In this document: piece after piece, positions 3,758 through 54,699 of the stretch | Position numbering within the stretch: the stretch's first letter is position 1 | Layout: every line of letters begins with the position of its first letter | NCBI GenBank assembly: GCA_043228905.1 | Contig: JBHGNT010000015.1 | Span: 992,001-1,056,000 of the forward strand | Origin: Azolla caroliniana | Lineage: Eukaryota; Plantae; Polypodiophyta | Direction of reading: 5' to 3' | DNA length: 64,000 nucleotides | Made by a program: the position numbers and the translations under genes | Notes under the pieces: model-generated | Told to the model about the DNA's origin: nothing | The model's input: only the letters and a program-made list of their open reading frames with translations | Databases searched by the model: none

Positions 3758-3849
3758 CGGTGCTGTCTGTAAGCCTCCTCTGCAGCTATTCTCGGTAGTA
3801 GATGCCTCCTCTGACAGATCTTCTGCTAAGCAGTGGGCCCAAGAAGAAG

Positions 3850-3955
3850 CAGAGACAGAGACAGAGACAGAGACAGAGACAGAGACAGAGACAGAGACAA
3901 GGAAGCCCCATGGGCCATGGCAACAATAGCATGAGAAGAAGAAGAAGAAGAAGAA
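3850..3955. repeat. (GAGACA)n and (GAA)n microsatellites in the 5' region of the DUF1191 gene
   Basis: Directly visible simple repeats. Confidence 0.9.
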
Positions 3956-4059
3956 GTTTGGTCCCTAGTGCCTAGTGACCACTTTAGTTTAGTACTAAAC
4001 CTTCCACAGTGTGAAACCTCCCTCCTTCTTTCACTTTTTTGCCCTTGCCTCTTCGGAAC

Positions 4060-7015: not shown

Positions 7016-7173
7016 GGACATTTATTATAGATAAACATGGAAATTGCCGTCTAATCAACATAGCCTCATAATGACACACCATTATCTTCTATAAAAAGAT
7101 TCCCATTAACAGATAATAAATAATGGCCATCATAATTAGAGCTTGATCAGAACATTGCCAAGGATACTTGAAC

Positions 7174-10100
7174 TAGCAATGGGCCCGGTTCGGTTTCTTG
7201 GCCTTGAAACCAAACCAAACCATTTATTAATAATAAAAACTGAACCAAACTGTTTAATTTTTTTGAAGTCATTTAAACTGAACTATTTAGAGCCGAACTG
7301 TTAAACCAAACCGTTTAAAGAATAGGAGAAACCAAACTGTTTACGAAAAATTTAAAACCAAACCAAACCATTTTTTATTGATATTAATCATCATACTTAT
7401 TATAAATTTGTGTGAGAAAAAGTAATGTTACATGATAGATAGTATAATCAAGTGACAGATATTTGGCAGAACAAAGATAATATGGATGTTCCCATTACAA
7501 TCAAAGTGGCTTGTGCTTTGATGGAGATATCACAATATTTTGCGTTAAAATCAAGATCTGAATATATGGAATATCAGGAGAAGGAAAGAAGGATGAGGGC
7601 AAGATTGATATCTTTGCAAAGATTGTAATAGGGTCGGCCAGAGTGTGCATGGATAGCTTCACATCTTGAAGAAGCCCGAAAACAAGTTCAACATATGGAA
7701 GAATGTCATAGTCAATTTCGGTATCACAATTATGCTTTAAGATGGACGCAAATTGGGGATAGATGTACAAAACAATTTTTTAATATTAAAGGCCCCAAGA
7801 GAGTCTCTAATGTAACTTGTTGTTTGCGGAATGAAAATGGCGAACTTGAAATGGATCCAAATGTTGTACGGGAAATTGCCACAAAATTCTATGCTACCCT
7901 TTTGTCAGAAGAGCCTATCTCTAAGGATATCAACCAAAATAGAATGAAGGTCTAGGCGGAAATTCAACCCAAGGTTACTCAAGCAATGTAAGATTCATTG
8001 ATGTCACATATTACAGAATTGGAGTTGGAACAAGCGTTGCACTCTTTATCGGACAATAGTTGTCCTGGAGTGGATGGACTTACACCTAAATTCTACAAGA
8101 AATATTGGGGGATACTGAAGAAAGACTTAAAAGATGCTTACCAACATATGTTTGAAAGTGGAGAGATGCCCATGTCGTTATCTAAGGGGATTATTTATCT
8201 TATACCTAAAACAGAAGGGGTTTCAGAAGATATTCGTAAGTGGAGGCCAATCACCCTCTTGAATACTAGTTATAAACTGTTTGCTAAGTTGCTTAGTTCT
8301 CGGTTACAAGAGGTATTACCAAAGATAATTCATGTACCACAAACTGGTTTTATGAGGGAAAGGAGTATTATGGATAATGTTTTTACATTTTGGGAGGCTA
8401 TTGCAATAGCAGTAAAAAACAAACAAAACCTAGTTGTGTTGCTTTTAGATTTTGAGAAAGCATATGATAGGGTTGACTGGAATTTTTTGGAAGGTACTAT
8501 GCATAAGTTGGGCTTCAACACGACATGGATTAAGGGTGTTTCTTGTCTTTATAGAAATGCACATAGTCAGGTGGTGTTGGCAGGTGGAGTAGGACCTCGG
8601 TTTAACATTACTCGATCCGTCCACCAAGGATGTCCACTTGCACCATTTTTGTTCCTTTTGTTTGCAGAAGCAATGCATGTATTTATATCATCACAATCTA
8701 TAGGCTTGTGTGGTTTGGCAATGCCAATGCATGGACAAGATATATTGGACTCGGAATTTGCAGATGATACTGCATTATATGTGGATGAGACTCTAACGAA
8801 TTTGCAACTAGTACAAGGGGCTTTGTCACAGTTTTGTATAACGTCTCGAGCTAAGTTAAATTGGGAGAAAACTGTTGCATTTTGGGTGAGTAAGGAACTG
8901 CCGCCTTGTTGGGCACCGCATCATACTTTCCAGTGGACTCAAAGAGGAGTTGTGGTTCGATATCTTGGAGTGCAAGTTGCGATTGATTTGGTTCCAAAAT
9001 TACATGCTGCACCATTACTATTAACTTTGAGGAAAAAGTTATTCTTGTGGAGCCATGCTAAACTATCTTTGGTTGGTAGAGTGATAGTTGTCAACCATGT
9101 GCTACTATCCACAGTGTGGTATATAGCCTCATCTTGGATCTTTTCAAAATCATGCATTGGACAAATTCGAAGGTTGGTTAGGAATTTTATTTGGGTTGGG
9201 GGGGATAAGAGTCATGTAAGACCGAAGGTGGCTTGGAGTACACTGATAACCCCAAAGCAATATAGTGGTCTAGGGATTATAGATCTAATAGACCAATGCA
9301 TGGCCTTGTTAGCAAAGCTAATAGTTCGTGTCCTTTTACCAGGACATGCTCCTTGGAAGCAATTGCTTATGCAAAGATTGTATCGTTGTGCTCCGCCGAT
9401 GGGTGGATTATGGGCTGATAGCATAAGGTGGATCTTTATACCAGACAAGAAACATGTTATGACTAGGAACTAGGACGACAAATTTTTTAATGGTCTTCTA
9501 CGAGCATGGGAGCATGTACATAAAGGGTTGGAACATGGTGTACCAACATCTGAGGAGGAATACTTGAGACAAAACTTAGTGTGGAATTCGAATATGCGTT
9601 TGCCCTTAGGGCACATGTTGGGGTCCCGTACGCGATTGTATTGGGCCAAGCTCGATGTAGGGCCAGGAGCGTTTGTTGTTGCATGGAAATCATTTCATAC
9701 TCTGAATATAAATGACAGATCAAAATTCTGGTCTTCCTTGAGAGGGGACTTGATTATGTGGGACCAAGTGCAGTCGGTTTTGGGGCACTCAGCCTCTACG
9801 GTATGGTCCTTTAATCCTCCCAAGTGGGAAGGAGCATTTACGAGGCTTCAAGTGCTAGTGGGGGTAAGGGGACATTTGTCTTGCGGACGATGTCAAGACT
9901 ATGATGTGGAGGAAGATGGCAGTATATGTAGAGCAACGATACAAACAAAGATCTTGCAATATGCTACATTTTCTAAAATAAGGGTCCTTGCTTATGATGG
10001 ATCTAAGTGGATCATCGACCCACAAGTTGAGGCAGTCAAGGAGCATTGGAAATTGAGAGTTTTTGAAAAGAAACCTTTGATAAGGTTGCAATGGGATCCG

Positions 10101-11495
10101 TGAGAATTTTGGTGGAAAGATCTGTTTGATTGTGCGGAAAAAGGTGTGGTTTTTTTCCGTACTTAGTTAAGATTGGACGACACATTTTGGCAACTCAACG
10201 TAGGACTGCACCACGAGCTAGTCAATTTTGGACCCACCAAGGGAACACATCCGAATTCCTAACAAAGTTTTGGAGAACATTATGGAAAAGGAAGCAAGAT
10301 ATGAAAATAAATGTCTTCCAATGGCTAGTAATACATAGAGCATTACCAGTTGGCCAATGGCTGCAACAATCAGCTGCACTGACCGCATGCATCTATTGTA
10401 GTTGTCAGATGGAGACATTGAAACATTACTTGTGGGAATGTCATGTTGCACAACAAGTTTGGAGACGAGTGTTCCGAGTTCTTGCTTGTATGTTTAGGGA
10501 TTGCAGTATTTCGTGGGGTATGGTAGTATGGGATATAGTGGCACAAGTGATGTGGCCATATGAGGCATGCCCAAATGACACAATTATTAGAATTCAAAGA
10601 GGATGATAATGGTGGTGCAACAAAGTCAAATGGAGGTTCATTACATGTTAAAGACAATGCAAGAAGTATGGGAGCTACTATGCACCACCACAATGTGGTT
10701 TATTTGGATTGTTAGGTGTTCTAAGGTGTTTGGTAATACTACTGTTCATCCAGTGGAAAGTGTACGAAATGTTTGGATGGAGATGGTACATACCTTGCAA
10801 GGGTGGTATGAGGATATTAAAGGTGAGACAAATGATGCAGTGTTGTAACGTCTCGAATTTATTGCCTATTGGAAGAAGGCCCCTTTTCTCATAGTACAAA
10901 ATTCAAGACCTAAATGGTTCTTAGCACCACCAGTATGGTTGTTCCCACCACCATGGTTGTTCCCACCACCAATCACATAACTTGGTTAAGGAGTGGTGGA
11001 GTGTTCATACTACTTATCCTTGAGGGATGGGACCTAAGGAAGAATGCACCAAATCAATGGTAGCTTGATGGTAGGTCAGTTTTTATTGTAATAATTGTTC
11101 ATAACTAATTAAATGATATTTTTCCAAGAAAATAAAATAAAATTTGTGTGAGAAAATCATCATAAATTTTGTCATCATACTTATCATAAATGAAAAGGAA
11201 ACTCTACCATATAATGCATATAAAATTTAATAAGTTAAAACTAGAGTTTAAAATTAAAAGTTCAAAGTTTATGAGTATTTTTTAACCTATAAACCTTTAA
11301 ACCAAACCACAGAAACAGAAACCAATAAGCCGATAAACCGCGAAACCTCTAAACCGGTAAATTTAAAACCGAACCGAAATTGATTAGTAACATTTGAAAC
11401 CAAACCAAACCGTTTATTTATCTTCGAACCTATAAACCGTTAAGCCACGATTTATCGGTTTAGTTCGGTTTGAGCCGAAATCGAGCCCATTGCTA
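7174..11495. mobile_element. hAT-type MITE split by a LINE insertion
   Basis: TIR TAGCAATGGGC(C/T)CG at 7174 with its reverse complement ending at 11495; AACCG/AAACC subterminal repeats at both ends. TSD is imperfect (GATACTT[GAA]C vs GATACTTC). Confidence 0.75.
7421..11139 (+). mobile_element. L1-clade LINE, 5'-truncated, disrupted ORF2 (RT and zf-RVT)
   Basis: ORF pieces 7695-7955, 7998-9473 (CPGVDG, WRPITLLN, LDFEKAYDRV, QGCPLAP, EFADD), 9528-10103 and 10130-10606 (CxxC..ETLKHYLWEC); A-rich tail; 17-bp TSD AAATTTGTGTGAGAAAA at 7404-7420 and 11140-11156. Confidence 0.92.
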
Positions 11496-21790: not shown

Positions 21791-22849
21791 TTCTTCTAAT
21801 CTATTACTCTAGTACTCTAAAACTTTTGTAATCCCAATCTTGGGACATATTGTAATTTCTTTTCCTATGTTAATGAAAATGATTAAATTTCTTATTTCCC
21901 TTAATTGTTTAATATAAACATATGAATATGATATCCTCTGGTCGAAGGCCCTGGGGTCCTGCATCAAGTTCACATATCCTCGTCGTATTTTTGTGACACC
22001 AGTCCCCATACATCTGAATGGATTAAGTCGAGCTTGTTACGGCTCCAATTTCGTTCGGTGGGGAATGGAAGCTGGTGTTGCTTCCCGAGTTGGCATGCTT
22101 CACATATTTGGGCCTTGCGACCACTAAATGTTGGCAAACTGAAAACAACTTGTTTCGATTGCAGGTGTTGAAGCCTCCAATAATTGACGTGACCGATCCG
22201 CTTGTGCCAGAGATCGATGTCCGATTCGATCTTCTATCCTTTTGCAAACATAGCGGATCCTACGTCGTTGGTGTCGAGGATGAACATCCTCTCGTCCCGA
22301 CGCCCTTGCACGATTATCCGGCCTTCTTTGATGAAGCACCCGAGGTGTGTAAACCGCACTTGCATTCCCTGGTCAACGATTTGTCCGACCAAGACCAGGT
22401 TCTTTGTGATTGTCGGAACGTGTAGTACAAGATATACTCACAAAACAAAAGGAAAAATACATATACACACAACGTGATTTTGAACCCATGGCGAAATTCG
22501 TGAACCGAAAGAACGGGAATGTTCGTGTCAAGGAAGATTCGCTGACCGAAGGAGATGTTCGAGTTAAGTGTTCCGATCGAGAGAGTCGATCGATGAGAGG
22601 ACCAATGGAAGTTCCGGTCATATAGAGATGATGGTCAAGGCATGTGGGATCCACGTGCAAGGCAGTCTCCCACGAGCGTGCCATAATGTGTTACTGTACG
22701 AGATGTACAGAGGGCAAGGGTGGAATGTTATAATGTTGTTTATGTGTATCTTATTGGGACCAAATGGTCGAAACAAGGAGTGTGTAGGGATAGACACACG
22801 ACGATTAGAGGGTGCTTAAGCTAAACAAGAGAAAGTAGGCAACATACAA

Positions 22850-22881
<32 letters not shown>

Positions 22882-22905
22882 TGTTTTTAATTCAAAGAGG
22901 GTGGT

Positions 22906-22958
22906 GGTCTTAGGCAAACTAGTTTCGCTCAATAGTGGAGCTCTTCAGTGCAAAGACC
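22906..22958 (-). ncRNA. Minimal type I hammerhead ribozyme in the 3' UTR of the Penelope-like element
   Basis: Minus strand: GGUCUU-U-GCA CUGAAGA GCUC-cacuauu-GAGC GAAA C-UA-G UU UGC-CU-AAGACC. Full catalytic core (CUGANGA, GAAA, NUH=GUU), stem I, stem II and a palindromic ACUAGU stem III. Confidence 0.85.
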
Positions 22959-23066
22959 ATTACAACAAGAGAATGTGATTTATAAAGGGGTGGGAAGGAA
23001 GAGGGAGTGAGAGAAGGAGTGGGGAGGATTTGATTTGTGTAGTAGATGAGATAGAATAGAATGTGG

Positions 23067-23109
<43 letters not shown>

Positions 23110-23211
23110 GTGTGTAGGAAAGTGATAGGGAATGAGAGAGGGGGAATTAGTATAATGATGATGGTGAGGGGGGAGTTCTTAATGTGATGAAAAGGGGGAT
23201 TTAGGATAATA

Positions 23212-23415
23212 TTAAGTGGGGGATGTGGGTGAATTATTTGAAAACTTAGTGTTAAGTGGGGGATTTGGGTGGATTGTTTGAAACTTTAGTCTTAAGTGGG
23301 GGATTTGGGTGGATTGTTTGAAAATTTAGTCTTAAATGGGGGATTTGGGTGGATTGTTTGAAAACTTAGTTTTAAGTGGGGGATTTTGGTGGATTTTTGG
23401 AAAACTTAGTCTTAA
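23212..23415. repeat. 40-bp tandem repeat x5 at the PLE ORF stop
   Basis: TTAAGTGGGGGATTTGGGTGGATTGTTTGAAAACTTAGTN starts at 23212, 23252, 23292, 23332 and 23372. Confidence 0.95.
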
Positions 23416-25147
23416 CTAGGAGGGCATGTAAGGACTTAGATTTTGTCCAACATATGAAAGGGTGTGAGATGCTTTTAAGCTCAGGATCTAACATTAAGTC
23501 ATTATAGAGATTTTTTAGAAAACTATGAATGCCTAGTTTTGGGGTATGTTTGGTGTATCTAAGTTTAAAGATTGTGGGGTTAAGGGAAGTAATAGTTTTG
23601 GGTTGATATAAGAGTGTTTTTCTAATATTAAAAGGTATTTTCTTATAGCTTTTTAGTATAAAGGACGGAGGGTAACCACGGTTAACTAGTCTATTGAAAA
23701 AGAGTTTTTTCATTTGGTAGAAACCTAATGGGGTGCTTTCTCTAATGAGATATTTCTTCGCTTCATTAGTGATAAAGTGTTGTTTCGCATGGGAAGGATG
23801 ATCCGATGAAAAAGGCAAGTATTGGTATGAATTTAGAGGTTTTTGAAAACAATTGAATAAAAAAGATGAATTTTCGAGGTTGATCCATATGTCTAAAAAA
23901 GGTAGCCGAAAGGGGGAAGTTTGAATGGTAAGCTTGATGGAGTTATTTGTGTGTAAAGGATAAAAGTCGAGATATTCTAAAAGTTGAGATTTGGTGCCTG
24001 TCCAGACCCCAAATGCATCATCAATATAGCGGGTGAAGTAGAAGAGATGGGGGGGCGATGGTTGTAAGTTTTCGAGATATACTAAAAAGAGGCATGCATA
24101 TACGACTGAAAAGTTGCTACCCATGGCCGTACCTTTTATTTGTTGGTAAACTATGTCATCGAAAGTGAGATAGTGATATTCTAAAATAAGGGCACTAAGG
24201 GTATAGATGAGATTTGTTTTCGAAGGGGAAAAGTGGGGGGTGATTAGACTACGTAGGGCTTGGAGTCCTAGCTTAGGGGGGATACTAGGATAGAGAGATT
24301 CAATGTCAAACGTGAATAAGAAACTATTAGATGGTGGGTGTAGGTTTTCTAGTGATTGGATTAGTGTGTGAGAGTCTTTTAGATATTGTGGTTGGAGAAG
24401 GAGGATTGGTAGAAGTTGGTGGTGTAACCACTTCGATGTTTGTTCAAATAAGGAATTATTATATGAACAAATGGGCCGAAAACCCATAGGTGTTTTGTGT
24501 GATTTAGGGAGGAAATAGAGGTTGGATACTTGATATCCTTTTTTGGGTTTGTGGAGGATGAAATTAGCTTCAATTGGGGAAAGTGTACCTAAGTGGTTTG
24601 TTATTATGTTATTAAGGCGGTATAATAACTCTTCCAAGGGGAAGTGGCTAACTCTCTTATAGGTGGTAGAATTTGAGAGGTGTTCTATGGCTTTGGTGTA
24701 GTATGTGTCTTTATCTAGAACACATACTCCCATATTTTTATCGGTTGGGAGGATGATAATGTGTTTGTTGTGTTGGAGGCTTTTAAAGGCTCTAGAGAGG
24801 TGGTATGGGATTCTAGTGTTTATGGGCTTAGTGTTGTGTGCTATTTGGTTAAGGATGTGTTGGTGTTTTTCTATTATGGAGACTAGGGGTGGATATTTTG
24901 TGGGTGGCATCCAACTACGTGTAAATGTGTAAGTGTAATTTTGAGAGTGAGTAATTACGTATGTGTACACATGCACATGTGTGTGCATGTGGACGGATAC
25001 AAGGAGGTGTGAGTGAGTGATTGGTGTGACTGTCCGAGGGGGCTTGCACCCCTGTGTATCTACCCTTTTGTAACTATTTAACCCCTTACGGGGAATGAAT
25101 GAAGGAGGAAGGAATAGTTCTCTCACAATCTCTCTCTCTCTTGTCAT
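23372..25147 (-). CDS. Penelope-like reverse transcriptase (uninterrupted ORF; true start uncertain)
   Basis: 591 aa: PTDKNMG, LYFLPKSHK..FRPICS, FDIESLYPSIP, QQIKGTAMGS, RYIDD, LPFLDI, YLPFSSDHP, RLVNRGYP. Ends after the thumb/linker with no GIY-YIG. Confidence 0.85.
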   Translation of the reverse strand: MTREREIVRELFLPPSFIPRKGLNSYKRVDTQGCKPPRTVTPITHSHLLVSVHMHTHVHVYTYVITHSQNYTYTFTRSWMPPTKYPPLVSIIEKHQHILNQIAHNTKPINTRIPYHLSRAFKSLQHNKHIIILPTDKNMGVCVLDKDTYYTKAIEHLSNSTTYKRVSHFPLEELLYRLNNIITNHLGTLSPIEANFILHKPKKGYQVSNLYFLPKSHKTPMGFRPICSYNNSLFEQTSKWLHHQLLPILLLQPQYLKDSHTLIQSLENLHPPSNSFLFTFDIESLYPSIPPKLGLQALRSLITPHFSPSKTNLIYTLSALILEYHYLTFDDIVYQQIKGTAMGSNFSVVYACLFLVYLENLQPSPPHLFYFTRYIDDAFGVWTGTKSQLLEYLDFYPLHTNNSIKLTIQTSPFRLPFLDIWINLENSSFLFNCFQKPLNSYQYLPFSSDHPSHAKQHFITNEAKKYLIRESTPLGFYQMKKLFFNRLVNRGYPPSFILKSYKKIPFNIRKTLLYQPKTITSLNPTIFKLRYTKHTPKLGIHSFLKNLYNDLMLDPELKSISHPFICWTKSKSLHALLVKTKFSKNPPKSPT

Positions 25148-25225
25148 CTCTCTTTCTCACTCTCTTCCCTTACGTTGAAACCCCTTGGGAGGGGGGTGGA
25201 GCCATTCTAGGCACCACCCCCCACC

Positions 25226-25339
25226 TATCAGGAATAGTACTAAACAGAGAGAGGATTAGTACTAAACAAAGAATTAGTACTAGAGAAGGGAAGTACTATT
25301 AGAACTAAGAGGACGGGACTGTGTAAGACTCCCGAGAGA

Positions 25340-25383
<44 letters not shown>

Positions 25384-28300
25384 GATGATAACAGATTATA
25401 TATTATAAGAAAAGTAAGTACAGAAGGGCTATGAGGCTAAAGACTAGCGTTGAACCAATTTGGTTCAACATAATGCCTAGCGCCCTCTTTTATAGTGTTC
25501 TCAGGAGTTATCCTGAAGCTTCTAGAATGTTCCAGAGAAATCTGGAATATACATTAATTTCCTATAATAAAATGAAAATGAAAATAATATCGTACATATT
25601 ACAAAAAATGATATAATGGTTAAGAGCTCGACCCATATAACCTAAGGTCATGGGTTCGAGTCTTGCCATATCATGACACTATCCCCCCTTTAAAACGACG
25701 AGTGTCACGAGTCGTTTTGGATGGAGGACCCGGTTTGTGTGGATATTGACGATGGAAGTCTTCAAGAAGCGCACGAGCATTGGTCACATTCTTGATCGGT
25801 TCCCAAGTACGTTCGCTGGGACTATAGCCTAGCCAATCGACTAGATAGTAGAGCTTGTTGCGAACAATCTTGGAATCAAGGATGGCGGCAACCTCGTACT
25901 CTGGTCCATCTTCAAGCTCGATCGGGGGTGGAGGTTGTATAATACGTCTTGGGATGGTGCTCTCGTGATAGGGTTCGAGGAGAGAACTATGAAACACCGG
26001 ATGTATCCGAAGTTGAGGAGGTAGATCGAGACGAAAAGCGACATCATTAATCTTTCCGATAATACGGAAAGGACCTAATCGCCGATAATCCAACTTCTCA
26101 CATGGGCGAGTAGTCTTGATGTGTCGTCGTAGCAGCCACACCCGATCTCCAATGTTAAAACTAGATGGAAGTCGATGACGATCCGCATAGACCTTGTGTG
26201 TTTGTTGAGCTTGCTAGAGATGAGTAGATAAATCTGCTTGTATCTTGCGTAACTGCTCCAAACGATCCTCCGCACAAGGATTTGTGGACACCTCTGGAGT
26301 TTCAAGTACACTCCACCGAGGGTGACATCCCGTATAAGCATAAAATGGCGTAACTTTAGTCGATGCGTGGATAGAGTTATTATAGGCAAATTCGGCGAAG
26401 TGGAGAATCTCTGCCTAGTTATCCTGATGATAGCTAAGAAAGCACCGCAGATACTGCTCCAGCGTTTGATTTGTTCGTTCGGCTTGGCCGTCGGTTTGTG
26501 GGTGGTAGTCGGAGGAGAGGTTACAAGTGACCTTGAGCATTTTAAAAAGGTGCTTCCAGAATTTTGACACGAACTGGGGTCCACGGTCGTTGACGATACT
26601 ATTGGGAAGTCCATGATGCCGACATACTCCACGCATGACAATTTCGGCGGTGTCTTCACTGGAGATTTCCTTAGTACATGACAAGAAATGAGCCATCTTC
26701 GTATATCAATCTACCACTGTTAGAATCGCATTGAACCCCTTAGAGACTGGAAGATCTGTGATGAAGTCGAGAGCAATGGATTGCCACGGCTTGCTTGGAA
26801 TTGGTAATGGTTCTAATAAACCATATGGATGATGCCTTGGCATTTTCGCTCTGCAGCATGTATCACAAGTCCAAACAAAATCTTCGACAAATTGTCGCAT
26901 ACAGGGCCACCAGAATGATCGTTGTACTAAATCTAATGTTTTAGTACTACCAAAATGTCCAACTTTATATGTATCATGACAGTTTTGTACTACTCGAAGG
27001 CGGCAAGAACCATTAGGAACATACAAAAGTTCTTTAAAGAAGAGTAATCCATCATGGTATTTGAATTGCCGATAGTCCGTACATGGTGGTTGTGACTGTG
27101 AACACGACGCGCGAGAGGGATCAATTTGTGCTAGTATAGCTTGGGCGAAAGCATCTTTCTTCAGGTCCACACGTATGATATTGATAACGTGGGAATCCAT
27201 GGGCATGCCAAAAACCTGTGTTGCTTGCAGTCGTGCCGGTCCCAAGATTACTTGCTTTTGGTTATTGAAAGCCGGCTCGCCGGGACGTGGTGTTAGATAC
27301 GAACGCCGTGATAATGCATCTGCCTTCCCTTGGTGCTTTCCCGGACGATATGTAATTTTGAAGTCGAAACGCGTGAGGAAGTGGGCCCACCGAGCTTGAC
27401 GTCGATTTAACACACGAGCATCCTGAAAGTAGGCAAGGTTTTTATGGTCACTAAATACGGTGACTTGATGAGAGGATCCTTCTAAAAAATGCCTCCATTG
27501 CATAAACGAGTCCACTATTGCCAATAGCTCCTTATCATGAAATTCGTAATTGATTTCGGCGGCGTCAAACTTGCGTGAGTGAAAAGCCACAGGATGTAGC
27601 TTCTCATCATGACCCCGTTGTGACAGAATGCTCCCCAATGCGAAATATGATGCGTCAGCTTCGATAATGAATGGTTGTTCCGGATTCATGAGCTAGAATT
27701 GGAGCCGATGTAAATGCCTTTTTAAGATTCTCGAAAGCCATATCTGCTTCTTCAGACCAAACGAACGATTGTCCCTTCTTGGTAATCTGTGTGAGAGGCA
27801 GAACGAGCTTTGAGTAATCTTGTATAAACTTCCGGTAAAAATTGGCAAAGCCTAAAAAACATTGCACATCCCGCACCGAGCACGGAGCCTGCCATTCTAC
27901 CACCGTCTTGACCTTAGCTGGGTCCATGGAGATGCCTTCTGATGAAATGACGTAGCCGAGAAATTCCACCTGGTTGCACCCGAAACTACCTTTTTCTAGC
28001 TTTGCGTAAAGACCGTGTTCTCAAAGTCGTTTTAGTACTAACAGTACATGAGAATCATGCTCTTCTTCGGTCTTTGAATAAACCAGTAGATCATGCAAGT
28101 AGATGATCATACACACATCCAAGAGATCTCGGAATATATCATTTGCCATGTGCTGGAAGACTGCAGGCGCATTAGTGAGGCCGAACGGCATGACCGTATA
28201 CTCGAAGTGCCCATATCTAGTGCAGAACACGGTCTTCCATTCATCTTCTGGTCGGATCCGTACGAGGTTATAGGCCCCCCCGTAAGTCGATTTTCGTGAA

Positions 28301-30940
28301 GAACTTGGCACCATTGATCCGTTCTAAAAGACTTGAGATAAGGGGAAGTGCATACCTATTGCGGATTGTAACTTTATTCAAGCCACGGTAATCTACCACC
28401 AGACGAAGTGAGCCATCCTTTTTCTTGACGAAGAAAATGGGTGCACCGGCTGGAGATTTCGAATGTCGAATGAATCCATTCTCCAAATTCTCCTCTATAT
28501 AGGCTCAAAGGACTTCTAGCTCGGTTGGTGACAAATTGTAGATCGGTCCCCATGGTAGCTCTTTCCCCGGTTGTAAATCGATGGGGCAATCATATGGTCG
28601 ATGGTGAGGAAGCGTATTGGCTCGTACTTTATCGAATACATCGGCATAATGATGATACTTCTTTGGAAGTTGAACGATGGACTCCTCTTTAATGGTGTTG
28701 GAGAGTTTTAGTGATATTGGGAAGAGAAACATTTCTTCCTTGCGTCCTTCTTCCCGCAACTGATGTAGTGAAATGGTGGCAATCTTCTGAGTAGATCCTC
28801 GGGTTTGTCGACATTGGATTTCTCTTGTTCTCCAATCTATGTATGGGTTATGTAACTCAAACCATGGTAATCCCAAAACGATGGGATGTTCTAAGATACT
28901 AATAATGTTAAATGATACTACACATGCTAAGTTATCTAGGACAATATTAATGGGTTCTGACTCTTCTATGATATTTCCAGAAGCAATGGGACGACCATCA
29001 ATGACGACTATAGAGGCTGGTCACAAGAGTTTTCTAAGAGATATTTGATGAGCTTGGGCAAAATTCCTATCCATAAAGCAAGAATTAGCTCCGGAGTCTA
29101 GAAGTGCTAAGACGTGTATTGGAGGGGTACTTTTAGTACTAACTGTTACTTGGGCTACGAACACATTGCTAACTTGCTTAGAGGGAATGGAACCACTAAT
29201 GGGCTGCACAAATCTAGGGTTGTCCAACCAAACGGCTCCTATTTTGGCTGGACTTAGTCGTTTAACTCTTCTTCTAACTGACTAAGGACATCAAATTTGT
29301 TCGTTAGATCTAGGCTATTAGTACTATTAGTACTATCAGATATCCCTACTGTAATAGGCTCGGGTTTAGTACAATTAGAACTAGCAACTATTTGGTTTAC
29401 CTGTCTTCTTGGCCTATGGGGACAATTTATTGCAATGTGTCCTGGTCCACCGCAGTAGAGACATAGTCAATTTGTTCGGCGTCGCTGCTTTTCTTCTTCG
29501 GATAATGGTCCTCGACAACGTGTAGTGTCAATCTCCATTGGAGTCGGAGTATTCACTAGAGGCGCATTATAGTACTCCCTGGGTAAAGGTTTTGCTACCA
29601 TTGAGGCGTAGGTGGGCTCTGATCTTGCCCTCGGCATCTGTAGTTGTCATTCCGAACGTCGCTCAAAGAGGCGGTTATCACATCTCACCGCGCAATTGAT
29701 TGCTTATGTTAAGGACTTTGGCTCTTCAGGGAAAGTCAAGAGTAAATCCTTGACATCGTTGTGTAAACCATAACAAAATTGCTCCATCAACGCGTGATCA
29801 TCCCAAGGGATGTCAGCGGCGAGTAGGCGGAAATCTGCAGCGTATGCAGAGGCTAGACGGTTTCCTTGGCGTAATCGCCGGATTTTGTTGATTGCGGTCC
29901 TTATGTTGTCAGTATCCCCAAAGCATGATTTAAACTCACCTATAAACTCTTCAAAGTTGTTGAGTAGTGGAGACTCCTTTTCCAACAGTGGAGCGAACCA
30001 TGCCAATGTTGAGCCACTTAACAACGTCCCTACTAAACCCAGTCGTGATGCATCGGTAGGATATCGGGAAGGATGCATTTGAATAACTAATCGTACATGA
30101 TTAAGGAACCCTCTAAACTGCGCTCGTGTTCCATCGAACTTCGTGGGAAGGCCAATCTTGGGCTCCTTATGAATCCCTTGTGTTCTGGGGCCTTGTTGTT
30201 GCATCGCTATGATGGTTGCTTCGAGTTGTTGCACGCGTAATGCAAGTTCCCCATGTTGTTGTTGCGTTTGCTGCTTTTCTAAGGAGATTTGTTGAAGATC
30301 CCCCAGTAATCGTTGATTTTCTTGTTCCAAAGCAAGGAACTTCTCTTTCAAGCATTGAAACTCCGAGAAAACAATTTGATATTCCTGAGCGCTAATTGTG
30401 GCCATGGGATGAAAAGAAAAGAGGAATAAGAGATTAGTATGAAGGGAGAGAGACAGAAGGGAAATTTGGTTCAAACTGTCAAGAATAGTACTAAATAGAG
30501 AGAGGATTAGTACTAAACAAAGAATTAGTACTAGAGAAGGGAAGTACTATTAGAACTAAGAGGACGGGACTGCGTAAGACGCCCGAGAGAGGAAGAGAGG
30601 AGAAGAGAGAGAGAGATAGCGAGGACGAGAGAGAGAGAGAGAGATGATTATAACAGATTATATATTATAAGAAAAGTAAGTACAGAAGGGCTATGAGGCT
30701 AAAGACTAGCGTTGAACCAATTTGGTTCAACATAATGCCTAGCGCCCTCTTTTATAGTGTTCTCAGGAGTTATCCTGAAGCTTCTAGAATGTTCCAGAGA
30801 AATCTGGAATATACATTAATTTCCTATAATAAAATGAAAATGAAAATAATATCCTACGTATTACAATAGATGATATAATGGTTAAGAGCTCGACCCATAT
30901 AACCTAAGGTCATGGGTTCGAGTCTTGCCATATCATAACA
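25226..30940 (-). mobile_element. Full-length but frameshifted Tcn1-like chromovirus (gag-PR-RT-RH-IN-chromodomain)
   Basis: LTRs 25226-25678 and 30477-30940; 5-bp TSD CCACC; PPT next to 25679; gag 29704-30474; LLDSGANSCF; RT/RH/IN fragments; chromodomain EYEVAAILDSK..YLVDWLGY (25671-26141). Confidence 0.93.
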
Positions 30941-31668
30941 CCACCCCTCAATGCTTGTCAATCACCATCATATTCTCTCTCACCATCATACCATTCATCA
31001 TCTCCACTATTACACCATGTCTATCTTCATCATCAATCATCATCATTATCATAAATATTAACTCTAACCCTAAAACATACAACACACACAAGGAGCTTAA
31101 ATGCCAACTAAAGGAATTTGAAGAAGTAAGAAAGAGCACCCAAGTTGAGCTCCAATACCCCAACAAAGAATTGTGAGTCATGCCCGCCCAATTGGAAGAA
31201 AGGAAGAATCTTATCTCATATGGCATCCAAGGCCTTTGAGTAGAGATCTAACCAAAATATTGGAGAACCAATAGGTTGTTCACTTGGAGTACATGATGCA
31301 CATTGAAGATGCATTAGCAACAACCGGCATTAAGTTGCACAATATAAACATGGAACTAATACAAGTGCATCGAAATATCTAGGCTAATAAAAATGAAATC
31401 CAATGTCTCTTCATAGAATGGAAGAAAATTGGAGTTAACCTCTACTCAATAGGAGAAGAGAGAGATGCATATAAAGTTGCAATTGTAGTGATCATATTTG
31501 TTAAAAAAACCTATATTTTATGTTTAGAACATGTTTTAGAATACTCTTAAGTATTTTGCATGTATTTTGTGTTTTAGAACAACCATTTTGAAATGTTTCA
31601 CATATTCTACATATTCTAAGGATTTTAAAAAGGGGTAGAATACATAACATACACATTGTATGCTAAGT

Positions 31669-32775: not shown

Positions 32776-35091
32776 TGCGATCTCGGCCATCTGGCCGACG
32801 CCCTAAGCCAGTCGAAGGCACTTCCGACTCGGCGGTCACGGACCAGCTTTTCCAAGAAATATCGGAGGCTCACCAGTTGCAATCCTCGCCACCTGCTACT
32901 CGATCACGAGTTGAGTCCACACCAACCTCTCCACCAAGCCCTCCAGAGGTCACCCACCCTGACCCTAACCCTTTTCCGGTTTTGGAAGACCCTGAATTCG
33001 ATACCTGCCGTATCCTTACCCACGATACACCGACAACCCCGACGCGGAGTCGCACATCTGTGCCTTCGTGTCCACCTGGCAGGCCAACCACTTAACACAG
33101 CAATTCTCACCTGCCGAAATCGAGGCGTCAAAAATTGCCGAGTTTACGCTATCCCTCGATGGACCAACCACGCGATGGTATTCTTGCCTCGACACAGGGG
33201 AGTTTGTCACCTTCCACGATGTTCGCACGTAGTTCCTAGAACTGTTCCATCGCGAGGTGCCCAAACGAGAATTTCTCCGACAATTCTTTTCCATGCGACA
33301 AGAACCGCACGAGACAGTCGCACAGTTCACGATCCGGTTCCAGGATCTCTACAGACAAGTGGCCGACGATGTCTCTGCATAGCACATTCCGGACGCATTC
33401 CTATCCAGCCTACGGGAGCCTCTACGGACGACTCTCGCACTTACTAATTTTGCCAACCAAACAATCGAGCAAGTCATAGCGCGCGTCCTCGCCCTCGATC
33501 GGATTCAGCAAAGCACGACTTTCTCTATGAGTTCACTGCAAAGCGCCCTTCCCTAGGAGGACAATCACTTCCACCAAGCCCTCCAATGCACAGTTTGCTC
33601 GGGGATCGGGCCATCTGGCCCTCAAATGTCCTCACCGGCCACAGTGTCTGATCTACCAGTCCCGATCTCACACTGTCGAGCACTGTGAATACAATATGCT
33701 CAACCGCACAACGACGGCCCCGGTTCACCAGATCGAGCCCAGGGATACATACTCTCGTCAGGACGAGCGACAATCCTACCGGAACCAGGGTAACCAACGA
33801 CCCCGATCGCTGGATAGACGGCGTCGTGACGACGATTACCATCGGGACGATGACCGTTACCAAAACGACAACCGACGGAGATCAGACAACCGTCGTGATC
33901 GCTATCATGATGACCAGTATCGGGCAAACGACGATTATGATCGGAATGAAGATGATTGGGAGGACCAATATGATCAGTGAAATTCCCGTAATGATCAGCG
34001 CAACTCTCACCGAGGATTGCGCAACAACAGAAGGAATAACGACAACCGTCTTCGGGACCCCCCGCAAAATGAACCGCGCAGCTCGAACGCGCCCTGGACC
34101 AACCCTCCAACACACGAGGCCAGGAATCAACCGCACCCCCCCACACACACAGATCGGGCTGGCACCAGCAACTCGGTCGTCGTTACCTGCTTCAAGTGCA
34201 ACCAACCTGGTCGCTACGCTACGCAATGCCAAACAACAGACCGCGGAAAGGCTCCTGTCGTGAATAGTATTATGGCCTATGTGCAAAACGTCACAACACG
34301 CTGTCGGGGTTACTACGCCCTTGCGTGTAGAAAGGAGGAGGGACCACGGGGGTCTTGGACCGAAGAGCAAGAGAGAGAGGAGTAAGAGAGAGAGACCCGA
34401 TTACACAGAACCGAAGATCCGATTGCGCAGAACCGGCAATTGCACAGGGACACGGCCCAACAAACAGAGACCACAAATAAACGCCGACGCAGATGGACGC
34501 AACAACGAAAGATATGTACTTATGAATACAAGAAAATAACAGACTAAAGTATTACAACCCACGGTGGGGCACGAAATAGATACTAACGAAAACGAACAGG
34601 GCGGCGAACAGATGCCGACCCCCCTGTATGTCTTGACGCACAGAAAGGGAAATCAGGTCGGAGGTGCTGCAGGACGCACTCGGGGCGTTCCACGGAACAG
34701 CGCAAGCCTCCTCGAAACCTGCACAGGTACGCGATGGAGCAGAAGACAAAGAAAACAGGAGTGAGAGAGAAGCTCCGAAATCGGTTCGGCAGCACTTCGT
34801 CCTCTCCGCGCGAGATCCCCCCTTCTCCTCTTCCTCTTCCTTTTTATTGCCCGTCAAGAGGCCGTTTGGCATTAACTGCATACCAAACGAATCTTCCCCC
34901 TCCGATCCTCGTATGTACCCACTTCGTCCTTAGGTACTTCTTGGCGCGCGTGTGTGTGTAGAGCCGTTTCCCACGCCTTGTTCCTCCGATTCCTCTCGTG
35001 GGCGGTTTTCTTCACGACATCCGCCCCCACCTAACCGCGCATCCACCGGCATGCGCCAAGTTAAGTTGGCACGGAGAAAACCGGCCCGCCT

Positions 35092-38000
35092 TTACTCTTC
35101 GCCTGCCGGCCCTTCCTCGGCCTCGGATCGGTCGTCGCTGCTGTCCAGGAGAATCGGGTCGGGTTCGTCGTCGTGCCGCTTCTTGAAAGCTTTGATCCTC
35201 TTCCCGGCCACGGGTATCGCTATTCTCGTACCGTCGAGTTCCGCCAGATGATATGTCCCGTTGTCGTTGGCGCTCTGTACCGTGTACGGCCCGAACCATC
35301 TCCGTGCGAACTTCCGCGTTGCTCGGTGCTGGTTGTCGAGGCTGCTGTCGTAGACGAGCACCCAGTCACCTTCGTCGATTTTCTTCGGTCGTAGCCGGTG
35401 CGTTCGGTCGAACCGGGCTTTGTTCTTTGTCCTCGCCACCCGGAGCTTCTCCGTAGCCAGTGCCACGTCCTCCGGTCTCCGCTCGAGCTGTCGTATACGT
35501 GCGGCCAACAACTCCTCCCGGCTCATCTCGTCCCGCCAGTCGACCGCTGCCCACGAGGAGATCGTCCGTTCAATCGGCATGATCGGCTTCTGGCCGAACA
35601 TGAGCTCCGTCGGCATGTACCCGGTTACCGAACTGTGCGTGGTCCGGTCTGCCCACAAAGCATAAGGTAGAAGTCGCGGCCAGTTGCCGACTTGGCCTCC
35701 GCATGCCCGAACCAGCGCCTTAACGATCGGCCCGTGTCCGCGCTCCACCTTTCCATTCGCCTCCGGGTTGTACGCAGTGGTGAGCGAGAGTTTGACTCCC
35801 AGCCGATCGAACAGCTCTGCGGCTTCCTCGGCGTCCAACTCCCCTCGGTCAGCCACGATCTTCCCGACGCACCCGTACCGGCATATCACGTCCTCGATCA
35901 GGAACCGACACACGGCCGCGGTCGTCTTGTTCTGAAGGGCTCGGCCTTCCACCTGGTTCGTCAGGTCTTCCCGCGCTAGCACCAGATACCGCATCTGTCC
36001 TACCCCCATCGGCATCGTCACCAGATCTACCATCCATTTGAAGTGGATAGTCGGAGGGTACGTAGGGTGAAGCCCGTCCCGGTGTCGGACTATCGAGTGC
36101 ATCTGACAACTCTCGCAAGTTGACACGAACCGATGCACGTCCCGGTACAATCCCGGCCACCAGTACTTCCCCTTCAGCTTCTCAAACGTCGCCCACGTTC
36201 CACGGTGTCCAGCCCAAGGGCTGTCGTGGTAGGCCGCCAGTAGCTCCTCCTGTTCTTCCTTCATCGCCACCACCCGGAGCGGGACGCCGTTCCTCTTCTT
36301 CGGGTGCCTCCACAAATGCCCATCTCGAAGAAAGAATCGATATGCTTTCTTCCGGATCCGGTTGGCCTCGTCCTTCGTCCATGACGCATCGGGCGTCATT
36401 GTCTTCAAAAACCCGCCAATCTGCAGCCACTCCCCGTCGTACTTGCTCGCGTCGAACTCGTTAAGCGCCGGAGTGCTCATCCCGTCGGTCGTTATGTATG
36501 CCGCCTCGAAGAAATCCACGCCGACTTCTTCGTCTTCCGAAACCATGCCGCCCTCGTCGTCGAACCTCGCCCTCGAAAGCATGTCGGCCATGGCGTTGTC
36601 TTTCCCGGAAACGTGTCGTATTTCCGGGTCCAGGGACTTGATGTACGCTATCCACCTGAGCATCGCCAGGTCCGGAGTCGCGCATCCGGAAACCATACCG
36701 AGAATCGGCAGGCAATCCGTCTCGATGATCACTTCTGTCCCTATCAGGTAGTCTTTGTCGGCCTTAACCGCCGAAACAATACCCCAGAGTTCGCGTTTAA
36801 CCTGGGCGTATCCTCGTTGCCGTTTACTGAGGACTTTCGCGCCGAATCGGATCGGAAACCGATTGCCGTCCTCGTCTTCCTGGTTCACGACCCATCCGAT
36901 CCCGGTCGGACTGGTATCCACCGTTATGAATACCGGGGTACCCTTCCCGTATACCGCCTTCCGGAGTGCCGGTGCCGCTGCAAGGGCCTCTTTCAGCTTC
37001 CGGACCGATTCCGCGTGCTCGTCTAGCCATTCGAACCTTCGCCCCTTTTTCAGCAACCCGTACAGTGGCTCCGCGACGTGCGCGTAATGCGGGATCCATA
37101 TGTGGTAGAAGGCGCATGCTCCCAAGAATCGTCGTACTTCCGTGACCGAGCTGCATTCAGGCTTCATCGCGGAGATGGCTTCTATCTTTGCCGGAGACGG
37201 TTTCCGGCCATATGGTCCACATAAATGTCCGACCACCATGATTTCCGACTGCCCGAATGCTGACTTCTCCCCCGAGAAGGTGAGTCTCGCATCCTCTAGC
37301 CTTTGCAGCACCTTCTCGCAGTCGTCGATGTGCGTCGCCACGAATCGCCGGCATCCGTCCGGCCCGATCGTCTCGTCCTTTTCTTCCACCGGGCATCCCT
37401 TGATCGGGATGTCGTCCAGAAACGGCATGGTGATGTCCGGGATACAGTCCTTCAGAACCTTGTTCATCGCATTCACCATGTGGGCCACCGAGTTGGTCCC
37501 TCCTTGCGGCAGTGTACACATCCGAACTAGGCCGAGGGGAGTTCGCATCGTCGTAATGTCTCTACTCTCCACGGCTAGCTGGAATTGGTCGTACCCTGAA
37601 TATAGATCACCGACCGAGTAAATCGACCTTCCGGCGAAGGCCTCCGCGAACTCGTCTACGGTCGGTCCGATCCCTGCGTTCCGGATGGTCACCCTATTGA
37701 CCGGTTGCAGGTCCTGAATGAAGCGCAATGATCCGTTTTTCTTTGGCACGGTAAACCACCGGTTCGAGTACGGGGCGCTCGACGGCTCGAGAATGCCCAT
37801 CTCAACTTTCTGCTTCAACAACTCCATCAACTTCGGGATGTGAGCTCTCGGAACCGGAATTGGCTTGAGATTCCACGGTACATGCGGTACCGTGAATATC
37901 ACCATCGGCTCTACGATCGTCGGGTCTACGCACCCGATTTCTTCCGGTGAGAATGCGAAGGCTTTCCCGTGCCTTCCGAGCATCCTCCGAAACCGGTCTT

Positions 38001-38355
38001 CCTCCGCCGGCAGTAGGAACCCGCCCCCACCGATTTTGAGCTCTCGGAGCGTCTCGTCGGTGAAGGTGTGCCCTATGCAGGCCGGATCTCGTAGACTAGG
38101 GTCCGATGCAACCCCTTTGATTCTCGACGCGCTGTCCTCCGGTAAGGGTGCCGCGACTGGCCTTACCTTCCGGTCCACAGTCTTGTACTTGGTGCTTACG
38201 TGGGCCGTCCGAACTGACTCGAGCCCTCGACCGAAGTCCGCGATGACTTCGTACATCTCCTCGGAACACACCGGTATCGTCCGGTCTTCGTTAAGGCCTT
38301 CTTCGACTACCTTTTCCAGCATTCCCATGGTGTCGTCGAATGAGACCGCCTCCAC
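35092..38355 (-). CDS. Pol (RT-RNase H-integrase) of copy A, probably translated by -1 frameshift from gag-PR
   Basis: 1087 aa: DLYSGYDQ, LPQGGTNS, FLDD, RNase H VDTS..ELWG, HHCC, DDE. The frame stays open up to the slippery site at 38583-38589. Confidence 0.93.
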   Translation of the reverse strand: MEAVSFDDTMGMLEKVVEEGLNEDRTIPVCSEEMYEVIADFGRGLESVRTAHVSTKYKTVDRKVRPVAAPLPEDSASRIKGVASDPSLRDPACIGHTFTDETLRELKIGGGGFLLPAEEDRFRRMLGRHGKAFAFSPEEIGCVDPTIVEPMVIFTVPHVPWNLKPIPVPRAHIPKLMELLKQKVEMGILEPSSAPYSNRWFTVPKKNGSLRFIQDLQPVNRVTIRNAGIGPTVDEFAEAFAGRSIYSVGDLYSGYDQFQLAVESRDITTMRTPLGLVRMCTLPQGGTNSVAHMVNAMNKVLKDCIPDITMPFLDDIPIKGCPVEEKDETIGPDGCRRFVATHIDDCEKVLQRLEDARLTFSGEKSAFGQSEIMVVGHLCGPYGRKPSPAKIEAISAMKPECSSVTEVRRFLGACAFYHIWIPHYAHVAEPLYGLLKKGRRFEWLDEHAESVRKLKEALAAAPALRKAVYGKGTPVFITVDTSPTGIGWVVNQEDEDGNRFPIRFGAKVLSKRQRGYAQVKRELWGIVSAVKADKDYLIGTEVIIETDCLPILGMVSGCATPDLAMLRWIAYIKSLDPEIRHVSGKDNAMADMLSRARFDDEGGMVSEDEEVGVDFFEAAYITTDGMSTPALNEFDASKYDGEWLQIGGFLKTMTPDASWTKDEANRIRKKAYRFFLRDGHLWRHPKKRNGVPLRVVAMKEEQEELLAAYHDSPWAGHRGTWATFEKLKGKYWWPGLYRDVHRFVSTCESCQMHSIVRHRDGLHPTYPPTIHFKWMVDLVTMPMGVGQMRYLVLAREDLTNQVEGRALQNKTTAAVCRFLIEDVICRYGCVGKIVADRGELDAEEAAELFDRLGVKLSLTTAYNPEANGKVERGHGPIVKALVRACGGQVGNWPRLLPYALWADRTTHSSVTGYMPTELMFGQKPIMPIERTISSWAAVDWRDEMSREELLAARIRQLERRPEDVALATEKLRVARTKNKARFDRTHRLRPKKIDEGDWVLVYDSSLDNQHRATRKFARRWFGPYTVQSANDNGTYHLAELDGTRIAIPVAGKRIKAFKKRHDDEPDPILLDSSDDRSEAEEGPAGEE

Positions 38356-38579
38356 GGCTCCGTTGATTTCCTCGTCCGGGCCGAGAACTCCGCACGCTCG
38401 AAGTCTCCCCTCCGCCTTTGTCTTCTCTCGGCCGCCGATGCCGACTATCGTACACGCTCCGCTGTCGGAGAACCAAAATTCCCTACCTATGATACAAGGT
38501 TTCTTCGGTTTTATCGTACAGGTGTGGGGTTTTCCCGGGGTGTCCGGACTGTCGCGGCCCCACGCCTTGGCAGCCCTCT

Positions 38580-40706: not shown

Positions 40707-41520
40707 TTCCTACTCTTCTGCCGCCTCTTTCACGTCGGGTTCACCAAGATGTCGGGGTTACTACGCCCTTGCGTGTAGAAAGGAGGAGGGACCACGGGGG
40801 TCTTGGACCGAAGAGCAAGAGAGAGAGGAGTAAGAGAGAGAGACCCGATTACACAAAACCGAAGATCCGATTGCGCAGAACCGGCAATTGCACAGGGACA
40901 CGGCCCAACAAACAGAGACCACAAATAAACGCCGACGCAGATGGACGCAACAACGAAAGATATGTACTTATGAATACAAGAAAATAACAGACTAAAGTAT
41001 TACAACCCACGGTGGGGCACGAAATAGATACTAACGAAAACGAACAGGGCGGCGAACAGATGCCGACCCCCCTGTATGTCTTGACGCACAGAAAGGGAAA
41101 TCAGGTCGGAGGTGCTGCAGGACGCACTCGGGGCGTTCCACGGAACAGCGCAAGCCTCCTCGAAACCTGCACAGGTACGCGATGGAGCAGAAGACAGAGA
41201 AAGCAGGAGTGAGAGAGAAGCTCCGAAATCGGTTCGGCAGCACTTCGTCCTCTCCGCGCGAGATCCCCCCTTCTCCTCTTCCTCTTCCTTTTTATTGCCC
41301 GTCAAGAGGCCGTTTGGCATTAACTGCATACCAAACGAATCTTCCCCCTCCGATCCTCGTATGTACCCACTTCGTCCTTAGGTACTTCTTGGCGCGCGTG
41401 TGTGTGTAGAGCCGTTTCCCACGCCTTGTTCCTCCGATTCCTCTCGTGGGCGGTTTTCTTCACGACAACGCAGCAAAGCCCAGGCTACCCCATGGCAAGT
41501 ACAGGATGAAGTCCGGCAAG

Positions 41521-46453: not shown

Positions 46454-46471
46454 TGGTGAACCCGACGTGAA
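46454..46471 (+). promoter_or_regulatory. Primer-binding site complementary to the 3' end of plant cytosolic tRNA-Trp
   Basis: TGGTGAACCCGACGTGAA is the reverse complement of TTCACGTCGGGTTCACCA (tRNA-Trp 3' end plus CCA, from memory); 3 nt after the LTR. Confidence 0.8.
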
Positions 46472-46493
46472 AGAGGCGGCAGAAGAGTAGGAA

Positions 46494-48620: not shown

Positions 48621-48844
48621 AGAGGGCTGCCAAGGCGTGGGGCCGCGACAGTCCGGACACCCCGGGAAAACCCCACACCTGTACGATAAAACCGAAGAAA
48701 CCTTGTATCATAGGTAGGGAATTTTGGTTCTCCGACAGCGGAGCGTGTACGATAGTCGGCATCGGCGGCCGAGAGAAGACAAAGGCGGAGGGGAGACTTC
48801 GAGCGTGCGGAGTTCTCGGCCCGGACGAGGAAATCAACGGAGCC

Positions 48845-54687: not shown

Positions 54688-54699
54688 GTATGTTAAGTG

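Follow-up and report, generated by a model that had tools for sequence, protein, structure and literature searches.

A conserved hammerhead ribozyme in the terminal repeat of a Penelope-like element (PLE) of Azolla caroliniana probably makes the 5′ end of the element's RNA template by cleavage, and the 3′ end of the inserted DNA would result from reverse transcriptase (RT) starting ~170 nt downstream. Ten copies from six families begin at the predicted scissile bond, and the cut is therefore likely to form the 5′ end of the copied RNA and not its 3′ end. As read from the junctions, these starts are genomic evidence of in vivo cleavage at the RNA 5′ end.

Host element and layout of the terminal repeat

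The window, i.e., the whole stretch of 64,000 nt that was analysed, contains a 5′-truncated copy of an endonuclease-less (EN-less) PLE, here denoted family A, with about 95–96% identity to the other copies of this family (Table 1). Family homology begins at 24917, and the first ~80 codons of the 594-aa open reading frame, which the earlier note had treated as element throughout, are flank. ORF2 has its stop at 23372-23374 and ends after the thumb, without a GIY-YIG domain. The window ORF by itself gave no Pfam match; RVT_1 was found in the ORF2 of a sister family (E 1.3e-6), and GIY-YIG-bearing PLE proteins were among the homologues of the window RT (E 1e-51). No GIY-YIG domain was detected in three ORF1 and three ORF2 sequences, with the control protein P0039 positive, and ORF1 matched no Pfam family above cut-off; its atlas matches (at most 0.82) are leads only. 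A nuclease may exist unrecognised in ORF1 or may be supplied in trans.

Longer copies possess an ORF1 of 745–881 codons (stop to stop) and an ORF2 of 660–680 codons, and coding units measure 4.7–6.1 kb across families. In six families the two reading frames overlap at A AAA AAC, with ORF2 in the −1 frame, and a hairpin of −20 to −31 kcal/mol follows in all four families folded. Overlaps at a slippery site of the type A AAA AAC can lead to frameshifting, and the RT would be made through a −1 frameshift between ORF1 and ORF2. In ORF2, no CxC motif lies upstream of the RT, and motif A is separated from motif B′ by ~60 residues.

Within tandem arrays, the ORF1 ATG of the next unit lies 0–20 nt past the 3′ end of the preceding unit, and in full-length copies the sequence past the tail runs on into the start of ORF1. 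The TATA box stands 36–42 nt ahead of C3 in most sister families. Because of this adjoining ORF1 ATG and the TATA box before C3, the region previously described as a 3′ UTR is a pseudo-LTR, from which, by its layout, the next unit would take its promoter and 5′ leader. The distance from the RT stop had been put at ~415 nt on the coding strand, and we measured 414 nt on that strand. The hallmarks of PLEs, namely 5′ truncation, tandem and inverted pseudo-LTRs, and a 3′ tail, are present. The window copy is a truncated and probably inactive product with an intact ribozyme.

Table 1. Positions of the hammerhead, its flanking signals and the host element in the window.
Feature	Position	Strand	Remark
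5′-truncated family A EN-less PLE	22746..24917	-	~2.17 kb of ~4.9-kb unit
ORF2 remnant (reverse transcriptase)	23372..24917	-	~512 open codons of 662
40-bp tandem repeat, ~5 units	23207..23420	-	starts in final ORF2 codons
TATA-like box TTTATAAA	22979..22986	-	38 nt before C3
Predicted transcription start, GCA of inner stem I	22949..22951	-	TATA spacing; four copies starting 1–5 nt before C3
Canonical type I hammerhead	22906..22958	-	6+3-bp stem I, 4-bp stem II, palindromic helix III
Outer stem I arm	22958-22953	-	
GCA of inner stem I	22951-22949	-	
CUGAAGA core stretch	22948-22942	-	
Stem II	22941-22938/22930-22927	-	
GAAA	22926-22923	-	
CUAG	22922-22919	-	
U16.1	22918	-	
U17	22917	-	
Predicted scissile bond, after GUU	22917/22916	-	start point of 10 copies, 6 families
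UGC	22916-22914	-	
AAGACC	22911-22906	-	
Conserved end signal: CRCACTCCT motif and 4-bp tetraloop hairpin	22758..22784	-	just upstream of DNA 3′ end
3′ terminus of the window copy ('tail')	22745..22750	-	~170 nt downstream of cut

A 30-nt tail-like stretch within ORF1 was considered as the start of the element and rejected, as homology continued further upstream. At one locus (L036, G000:C6:17956700-17966600, minus strand), a ~30-nt near-copy of the element's own tail plus ORF1 leader lies inside a family A ORF1, possibly as the relic of an old template jump. Another family (L067, L068, L117, L123, L126) looks non-autonomous: its units of ~1.8–2.3 kb, often in tandems, have no long ORF and share the TATA-hammerhead-tail layout with two to three tandem tail signals. 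In its flanks we noted tRNA-like Rfam matches of 50 bits (L067:847-929, 7092-7175, 8314-8397).

Ends of the copies and the proposed cycle

To locate the ends of family A copies we used its tail pattern, which occurs at 41 places, 40 of which were analysed since two share one flank. Four of these 40 tail-bearing copies start at the scissile bond (L103, L127, L133, L138), one starts 4 nt before C3 (L134) and four start further downstream; the remaining starts lie ~550 nt to >4.4 kb upstream. Thus, four of nine local ends fall inside a 4-nt window of 370 (binomial p 1.6e-6). The switch position in L138 could be anywhere from −1 to +6, and without this ambiguous copy p is about 1e-4 (hand calculation). 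The apparent 5′ end of L042 was discarded as an unrelated repeat insertion. The full census and the positional control refer to family A; in sister families, L104, L105, L130, L131, L132/L175 and L058 start at the bond, and L104 and L105, with six flank bases in common, may represent one event. Patterns excluding G16.2 gave 12 matches, i.e., seven junctions at the bond, four one-U deletions and one substitution. Such pattern searches are incomplete, because the search for the CATATA family found nothing although L058 belongs there, and L133 and L138 escaped the pattern of family A.

Several of these junctions carry further marks of an insertion event. L058, a complete copy, starts 1 nt past the bond; its 3′ hammerhead is intact, and a target duplication of 112 bp ends at the junction. 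In L133 a target duplication of ~44 bp ends at the cut-site junction. In L130 and L138 the scissile bond is the site of a template jump. L127 together with L045 forms a full-length copy, with an inverted 5′ repeat that extends between tail and cut. At four of the ten junctions the flank has TT as its last bases, and there the boundary may lie 1–2 nt upstream of the bond or the RT may have added AA.

A second, rarer class of starts lies 1–5 nt before C3 (L134, L121, L128, L158). These were chance finds, with only one of them among the 40 census copies, and a search for cores without the outer stem I arm gave eight matches, of which most belonged to new families and one, L158, was a true junction. 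In barley, TATA boxes start 29–36 nt ahead of a mostly CA initiator, according to PMC10762323, and barley-type spacing from the TATA-like box would place the transcription start at 22955-22948, inside stem I. Box and starts together point to Pol II initiation within this stem.

We propose the following cycle. Where units stand in a full or partial tandem, the upstream repeat would act as the promoter, with Pol II starting inside stem I, and the two hammerheads of the transcript would pair via their palindromic helix III. With its stem I arm complete, the downstream hammerhead would be efficient in cleaving the upstream site; the upstream one, whose arm is reduced to 3 bp, would be slow in cleaving the downstream site. 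An asymmetric dimer of this kind, slow second cut included, has in our estimation a little less than an even chance. The swapped dimer was predicted at −30.0 kcal/mol vs −14.1 per monomer, its fold sitting 3 kcal/mol above the two-strand minimum free energy (MFE) structure, and with a truncated first arm the value was −22.1 vs −30.0 kcal/mol. The truncation would spare the 3′ site, because the swapped cores combine the 5′ arm of one copy with the 3′ arm of the other. RT translated through the frameshift would bind the hairpin signal and begin cDNA synthesis there, primed by a 3′ end where the DNA already has a break or gap. Uncut RNA would yield copies beginning at the transcription start, and RNA cut at the 5′ site copies beginning at the scissile bond. 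Where both sites are cut, a host ligase would likely join the RNA ends into a circle, which would then go through more than one round of copying. As to whether some RNAs are cut twice and circularised, we regard the two answers as about equally probable, and the same balance applies to the step in which copying of circles would restore the upstream promoter and yield head-to-tail arrays. Templates longer than one unit are needed by the lineage, since a copy starting at the cut has no promoter.

A quite credible alternative, to which we nevertheless give distinctly less than even weight, retains the 5′ end made by cleavage and dispenses with circles: the 3′ hammerhead would stay uncut, and arrays would arise from multi-unit read-through or from cDNA transfer between terminal repeats. 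L058, L127 with L045, and L175 are near-full-length, start at the cut and are continuous across the 3′ hammerhead, which fits RNA cut solely at the 5′ site. Template jumps between or within RNAs are common (L018, L028, L128, L130, L135, L138), and uncut RNAs are evidently copied as well (L134). However, four continuous copies from three families (L101, L106, L107, L128) have one U missing exactly at the GUU/U junction. The background was three single deletions in 2753 other observations of 3-base runs, and a pattern with one A deleted from the neighbouring GAAA had no match. Taking three independent events, the Poisson p is 1.5e-3, at an expectation of 0.22 scars that applies the family A baseline to ~200 copies; L106 and L107, 37 kb apart, may be non-independent. 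Arrays and partial tandems also often begin upstream of the first promoter (L167, L171, L059, L064, L053, L056). One array of four units, three identical ones of 5581 bp and one of 5577, starts 283 nt upstream of the cut site, beyond the promoter; its identical units could reflect recent tandem duplication or assembly collapse. Finally, the visible jumps are imprecise, whereas array junctions are exact.

It is improbable that the ribozyme is real but a passenger, with uncut RNA as the template and an RT that stalls at the folded core and so mimics a 5′ end. Such stalling would suit the finding that hammerhead activity was dispensable in vitro for an Anolis element, as described in PMC11167929, as well as the continuity of most copies through the motif and the TT extension at four junctions, which reaches up to just before G16.2 of helix III. 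Yet the RT would meet stem I first, ~11 nt earlier, a place to which not one of the 40 census ends maps. In L103, L133, L175 and L058 the start is at 0 or +1 and TT is absent, and template jumps, target duplications and one-U scars all occur at the same bond. Cleavage at the 5′ end remains our preferred reading.

At the 3′ side, the other family A copies checked (29 of 29) end at the equivalent of window positions 22740-22757, ~170 nt beyond the cut. No copy stops at the cut among the ~100 cores examined, a set in which duplicates and one chance match may be included. In all families the terminus directly follows a CRCACTCCT motif with a 4-bp hairpin, and each sister family has its own end signal, about 120–650 nt downstream of the cut. 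Within the hairpin, 96% of 52 cells are paired, and its covariation was reached in one of 500 shuffles, with only two pairs showing two-sided change. Motif and hairpin are likely the signal for RT binding and initiation. It is thus very improbable that a cut in a 3′ UTR hammerhead sets the RNA's 3′ end, a reading suggested by lone 5′-truncated copies such as that of the window, where the hammerhead stands downstream of the RT stop: as a 3′-ending motif the hammerhead fails, because every one of the 29 copies runs past the cut and none stops there. The earlier note had proposed that cleavage after GUU defines the RNA end used for retrotransposition; an end is indeed defined, as shown by the ten copies that start there, but it is not the 3′ end.

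Conservation and predicted folding of the hammerhead

The minus-strand hammerhead string reported before matches 22958-22906 exactly. Its assignment to a type I hammerhead of a PLE is borne out by a complete core, stems that covary over 14 families and a PLE-type RT. Comparing one representative per family, we found the core (C3 U4 G5 A6 N7 G8 A9, G12 A13 A14, A15.1-U16.1 and H17) invariant in 14 of 14 families. The proposed check for stem covariation was positive: two-sided changes occurred in 9 of 16 pairs vs 4.7 in shuffles, none of 500 shuffles reaching the observed value, in an alignment whose outer stem is partly out of register. Stem I is open-ended, both stem I and stem II are paired at covarying positions, and the predicted pairing energy of cognate stem I arms is −13.3 vs −7.5 kcal/mol for non-cognate ones (0 of 100000 permutations). 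Loop 2 and the stem I bulge, where nucleotides of a loop 1-loop 2 tertiary contact would be expected, vary widely between families.

Helix III is palindromic in nearly all families (ACUAGU in 11, ACAUGU in two, broken in one), and the change from UA to AU in two families preserves the palindrome. This fits the previous suggestion that a palindromic stem III would favour dimeric cleavage. The designation as a minimal type I form had to be revised. Helix III is present, helix II has 4 bp and there is no extra base between positions 9 and 10.1; by the definitions given in PMC4209133, the motif is a canonical type I hammerhead, with a 2-bp helix III and a palindromic loop.

In Rfam, which had also been proposed as a check, no match reached the gathering score. 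A scan of the whole window at E<=1 returned no hammerhead, and a local scan with a 161-nt query gave Hammerhead_HH9 as the best hit, with 15.2 bits and E 0.25 at a gathering threshold of 52. This sub-threshold score lowers the case for membership in an Rfam family, not for hammerhead-like working. The MFE structure of the monomer differs from the active fold (z −2.28); it retains outer stem I and stem II and loses the active core. That the motif is a chance look-alike inside a repeat is scarcely conceivable, despite the lack of an Rfam match at gathering score, because a pattern of core plus stem II matched 193 times in the 523-Mb assembly containing the window vs 0 times in a reversed control, and stems covary around an invariant core in 14 families. 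The hammerhead is real and conserved, and is likely active. In a divergent family (L160), inner stem I is CCA/UGG, the triplet is GUA and helix III is ACAUGU, and a second core with AUGCAU lies nearby.

Insertion sites and relation to known elements

On chromosome-scale contigs, none of 37 family A sites lay within 0.5 Mb of a chromosome end, and telomere attachment was rejected as the insertion mode of this family. Targeting of rDNA as in PLE-X was dismissed likewise, as no rRNA was found at 14 loci (Rfam, gathering score). Two family A copies that lack the exact tail pattern (L034, L035) reside in a 178-bp satellite near contig ends, and among the matches listed, 10 of 100 cores (of 193) lie within 250 kb of an end. 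Target duplications were found in 8 of 38 non-satellite family A copies, with lengths of about 21, 44, 111, 125, 262, 484, 810 and 980 bp; the other 30 had no duplication within 0.6–1.4 kb of flank, and that of L043 was not confirmed. In the control, 2 of 400 mismatched pairs scored, both from shared repeats. The window copy has no target-site duplication: its target is nearly blunt, with at most a few bases lost, and its 3′ junction shows ATACA microhomology. Five chimeras (L018, L028, L128, L135, L149) join the tail of one family to a truncated copy of another, in direct or inverted orientation, which suggests that the RT would switch between RNAs within one insertion. Variable duplications, microhomology and chimeras together are consistent with priming at existing breaks or gaps.

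Two sister families have CCCTAAA-like repeats and prefer subtelomeric satellite. Sister-family copies at L162 (start of C7), L164 (end of C60) and L166 (start of C46) lie by telomeric arrays with the sense 3′ side telomere-ward, and L162 breaks off within ORF1 right at the telomeric repeats. In two telomere-abutting copies of sister families, G-rich repeats follow the sense 3′ side, which is the reverse of what priming on a G-rich overhang would give. Elsewhere in the window, a chromodomain Ty3 element (25225-30942, minus strand) with 98% identical LTRs and several stops lies ~310 bp upstream of the PLE copy, in the same host repeat. Two inverted Ty3-type LTR retrotransposons (34294-41470 and 45730-52901) are 100% complementary over 6114 nt and enclose a 1760-bp direct duplication. 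Also in the window are a DUF1191 gene that contains acidic repeats and a pair of LINE-like remnants with RVT_1 (2408-3964, minus; 7992-10606, plus; 53473-54979, minus).

The EN-deficient PLEs of Selaginella are known as Sm1 and Sm2. In a quick RT tree of 62 rows, which takes in 57 of at least 120 homologues and no labelled Coprina reference, five families of this genome cluster with Selaginella, Ginkgo and Cryptomeria proteins (26 rows, SH-aLRT 100). The RT groups there with a Selaginella protein and unnamed EN-less RTs, and the Selaginella protein P0025 (38% identity) falls in the land-plant clade of family A (SH-aLRT 100).

Endonuclease-deficient, telomere-associated PLEs with canonical type I hammerheads have been described from Selaginella moellendorffii (PMC4209133; the 'Coprina' group in PMC8557442). 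Family A resembles these Coprina-type elements, as there described, in its PLE-type RT without GIY-YIG and its canonical type I hammerhead in a pseudo-LTR. Unlike Coprina/Athena-type PLEs as portrayed in these sources, which sit only at chromosome termini and are joined to G-rich overhangs by reverse-complement telomeric repeats next to the hammerhead, it lies off chromosome ends with no telomeric repeats by the hammerhead, and unlike the EN-deficient PLEs of Selaginella it makes target duplications of up to ~980 bp. With PLE-X of Chara and Selaginella (PMC8557442) it shares the lack of GIY-YIG and the canonical hammerhead, and with that of Chara the genome-wide spread. However, PLE-X is presented there with a CxC motif and within a Naiad/Chlamys clade that has a fingers insertion, and both features are absent from ORF2 here. 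An ORF1 joined via a frameshift is an optional PLE feature in Fig. 1 of that paper.

A further comparison is the Poseidon element PAc of Anolis, whose hammerhead mutants inserted unimpaired in vitro and for which no RNA-seq reads ended at the cut, according to PMC11167929. As with PAc, RT would start internally, at a stem-loop downstream of the hammerhead, to produce the 'tail', and units occur in tandem. By the same account, PAc has an endonuclease and a single ORF, whereas family A is EN-less with two ORFs. The PAc hammerhead produced no read ends; in the present elements the cut is marked by 5′ junctions in the genome. Animal non-LTR retrozymes also carry type I hammerheads in tandem units, and double cleavage with circularisation by tRNA ligase was reported for them in vitro (PMC7229834). 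Those are non-coding units of 170–400 nt as described, in contrast to the 4.7–6.1-kb coding elements here, which have an apparent promoter of their own and whose circles are putative. A circular template for PLEs was proposed by Cervera and de la Peña in 2014 (PMC4209133).

The hammerhead alone is ordinary, and its type is known, since canonical hammerheads were published for Selaginella EN-less PLEs. In our literature search we found no report of 5′ junctions at PLE hammerhead sites, of a start inside stem I or of such long duplications; key papers, Lunse et al. 2017 among them, may cover part of this. The insertion junctions provide a nucleotide-level record of the cut RNA as a real template and name the end that the cut makes, and the circular-template proposal gains two indirect signs. 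An element without a known endonuclease that fills chromosome arms and leaves duplications of 0.1–1 kb bears on the use of DNA breaks by telomerase-like RTs.

Going further is speculative, and we consider it rather unlikely as a whole that a land-plant EN-less PLE lineage patches breaks in chromosome arms through a viroid-like cycle, in which a start within the hammerhead and ordered cleavage would turn one transcript into a capped message, a 5′-cut linear template or a ligated 5–6-kb circle, and rolling reverse transcription would rebuild the promoter. If true, such a cycle, recorded in the junctions, would be the first in vivo evidence for a role of the PLE hammerhead. As several families have young, intact copies, the system is directly testable.
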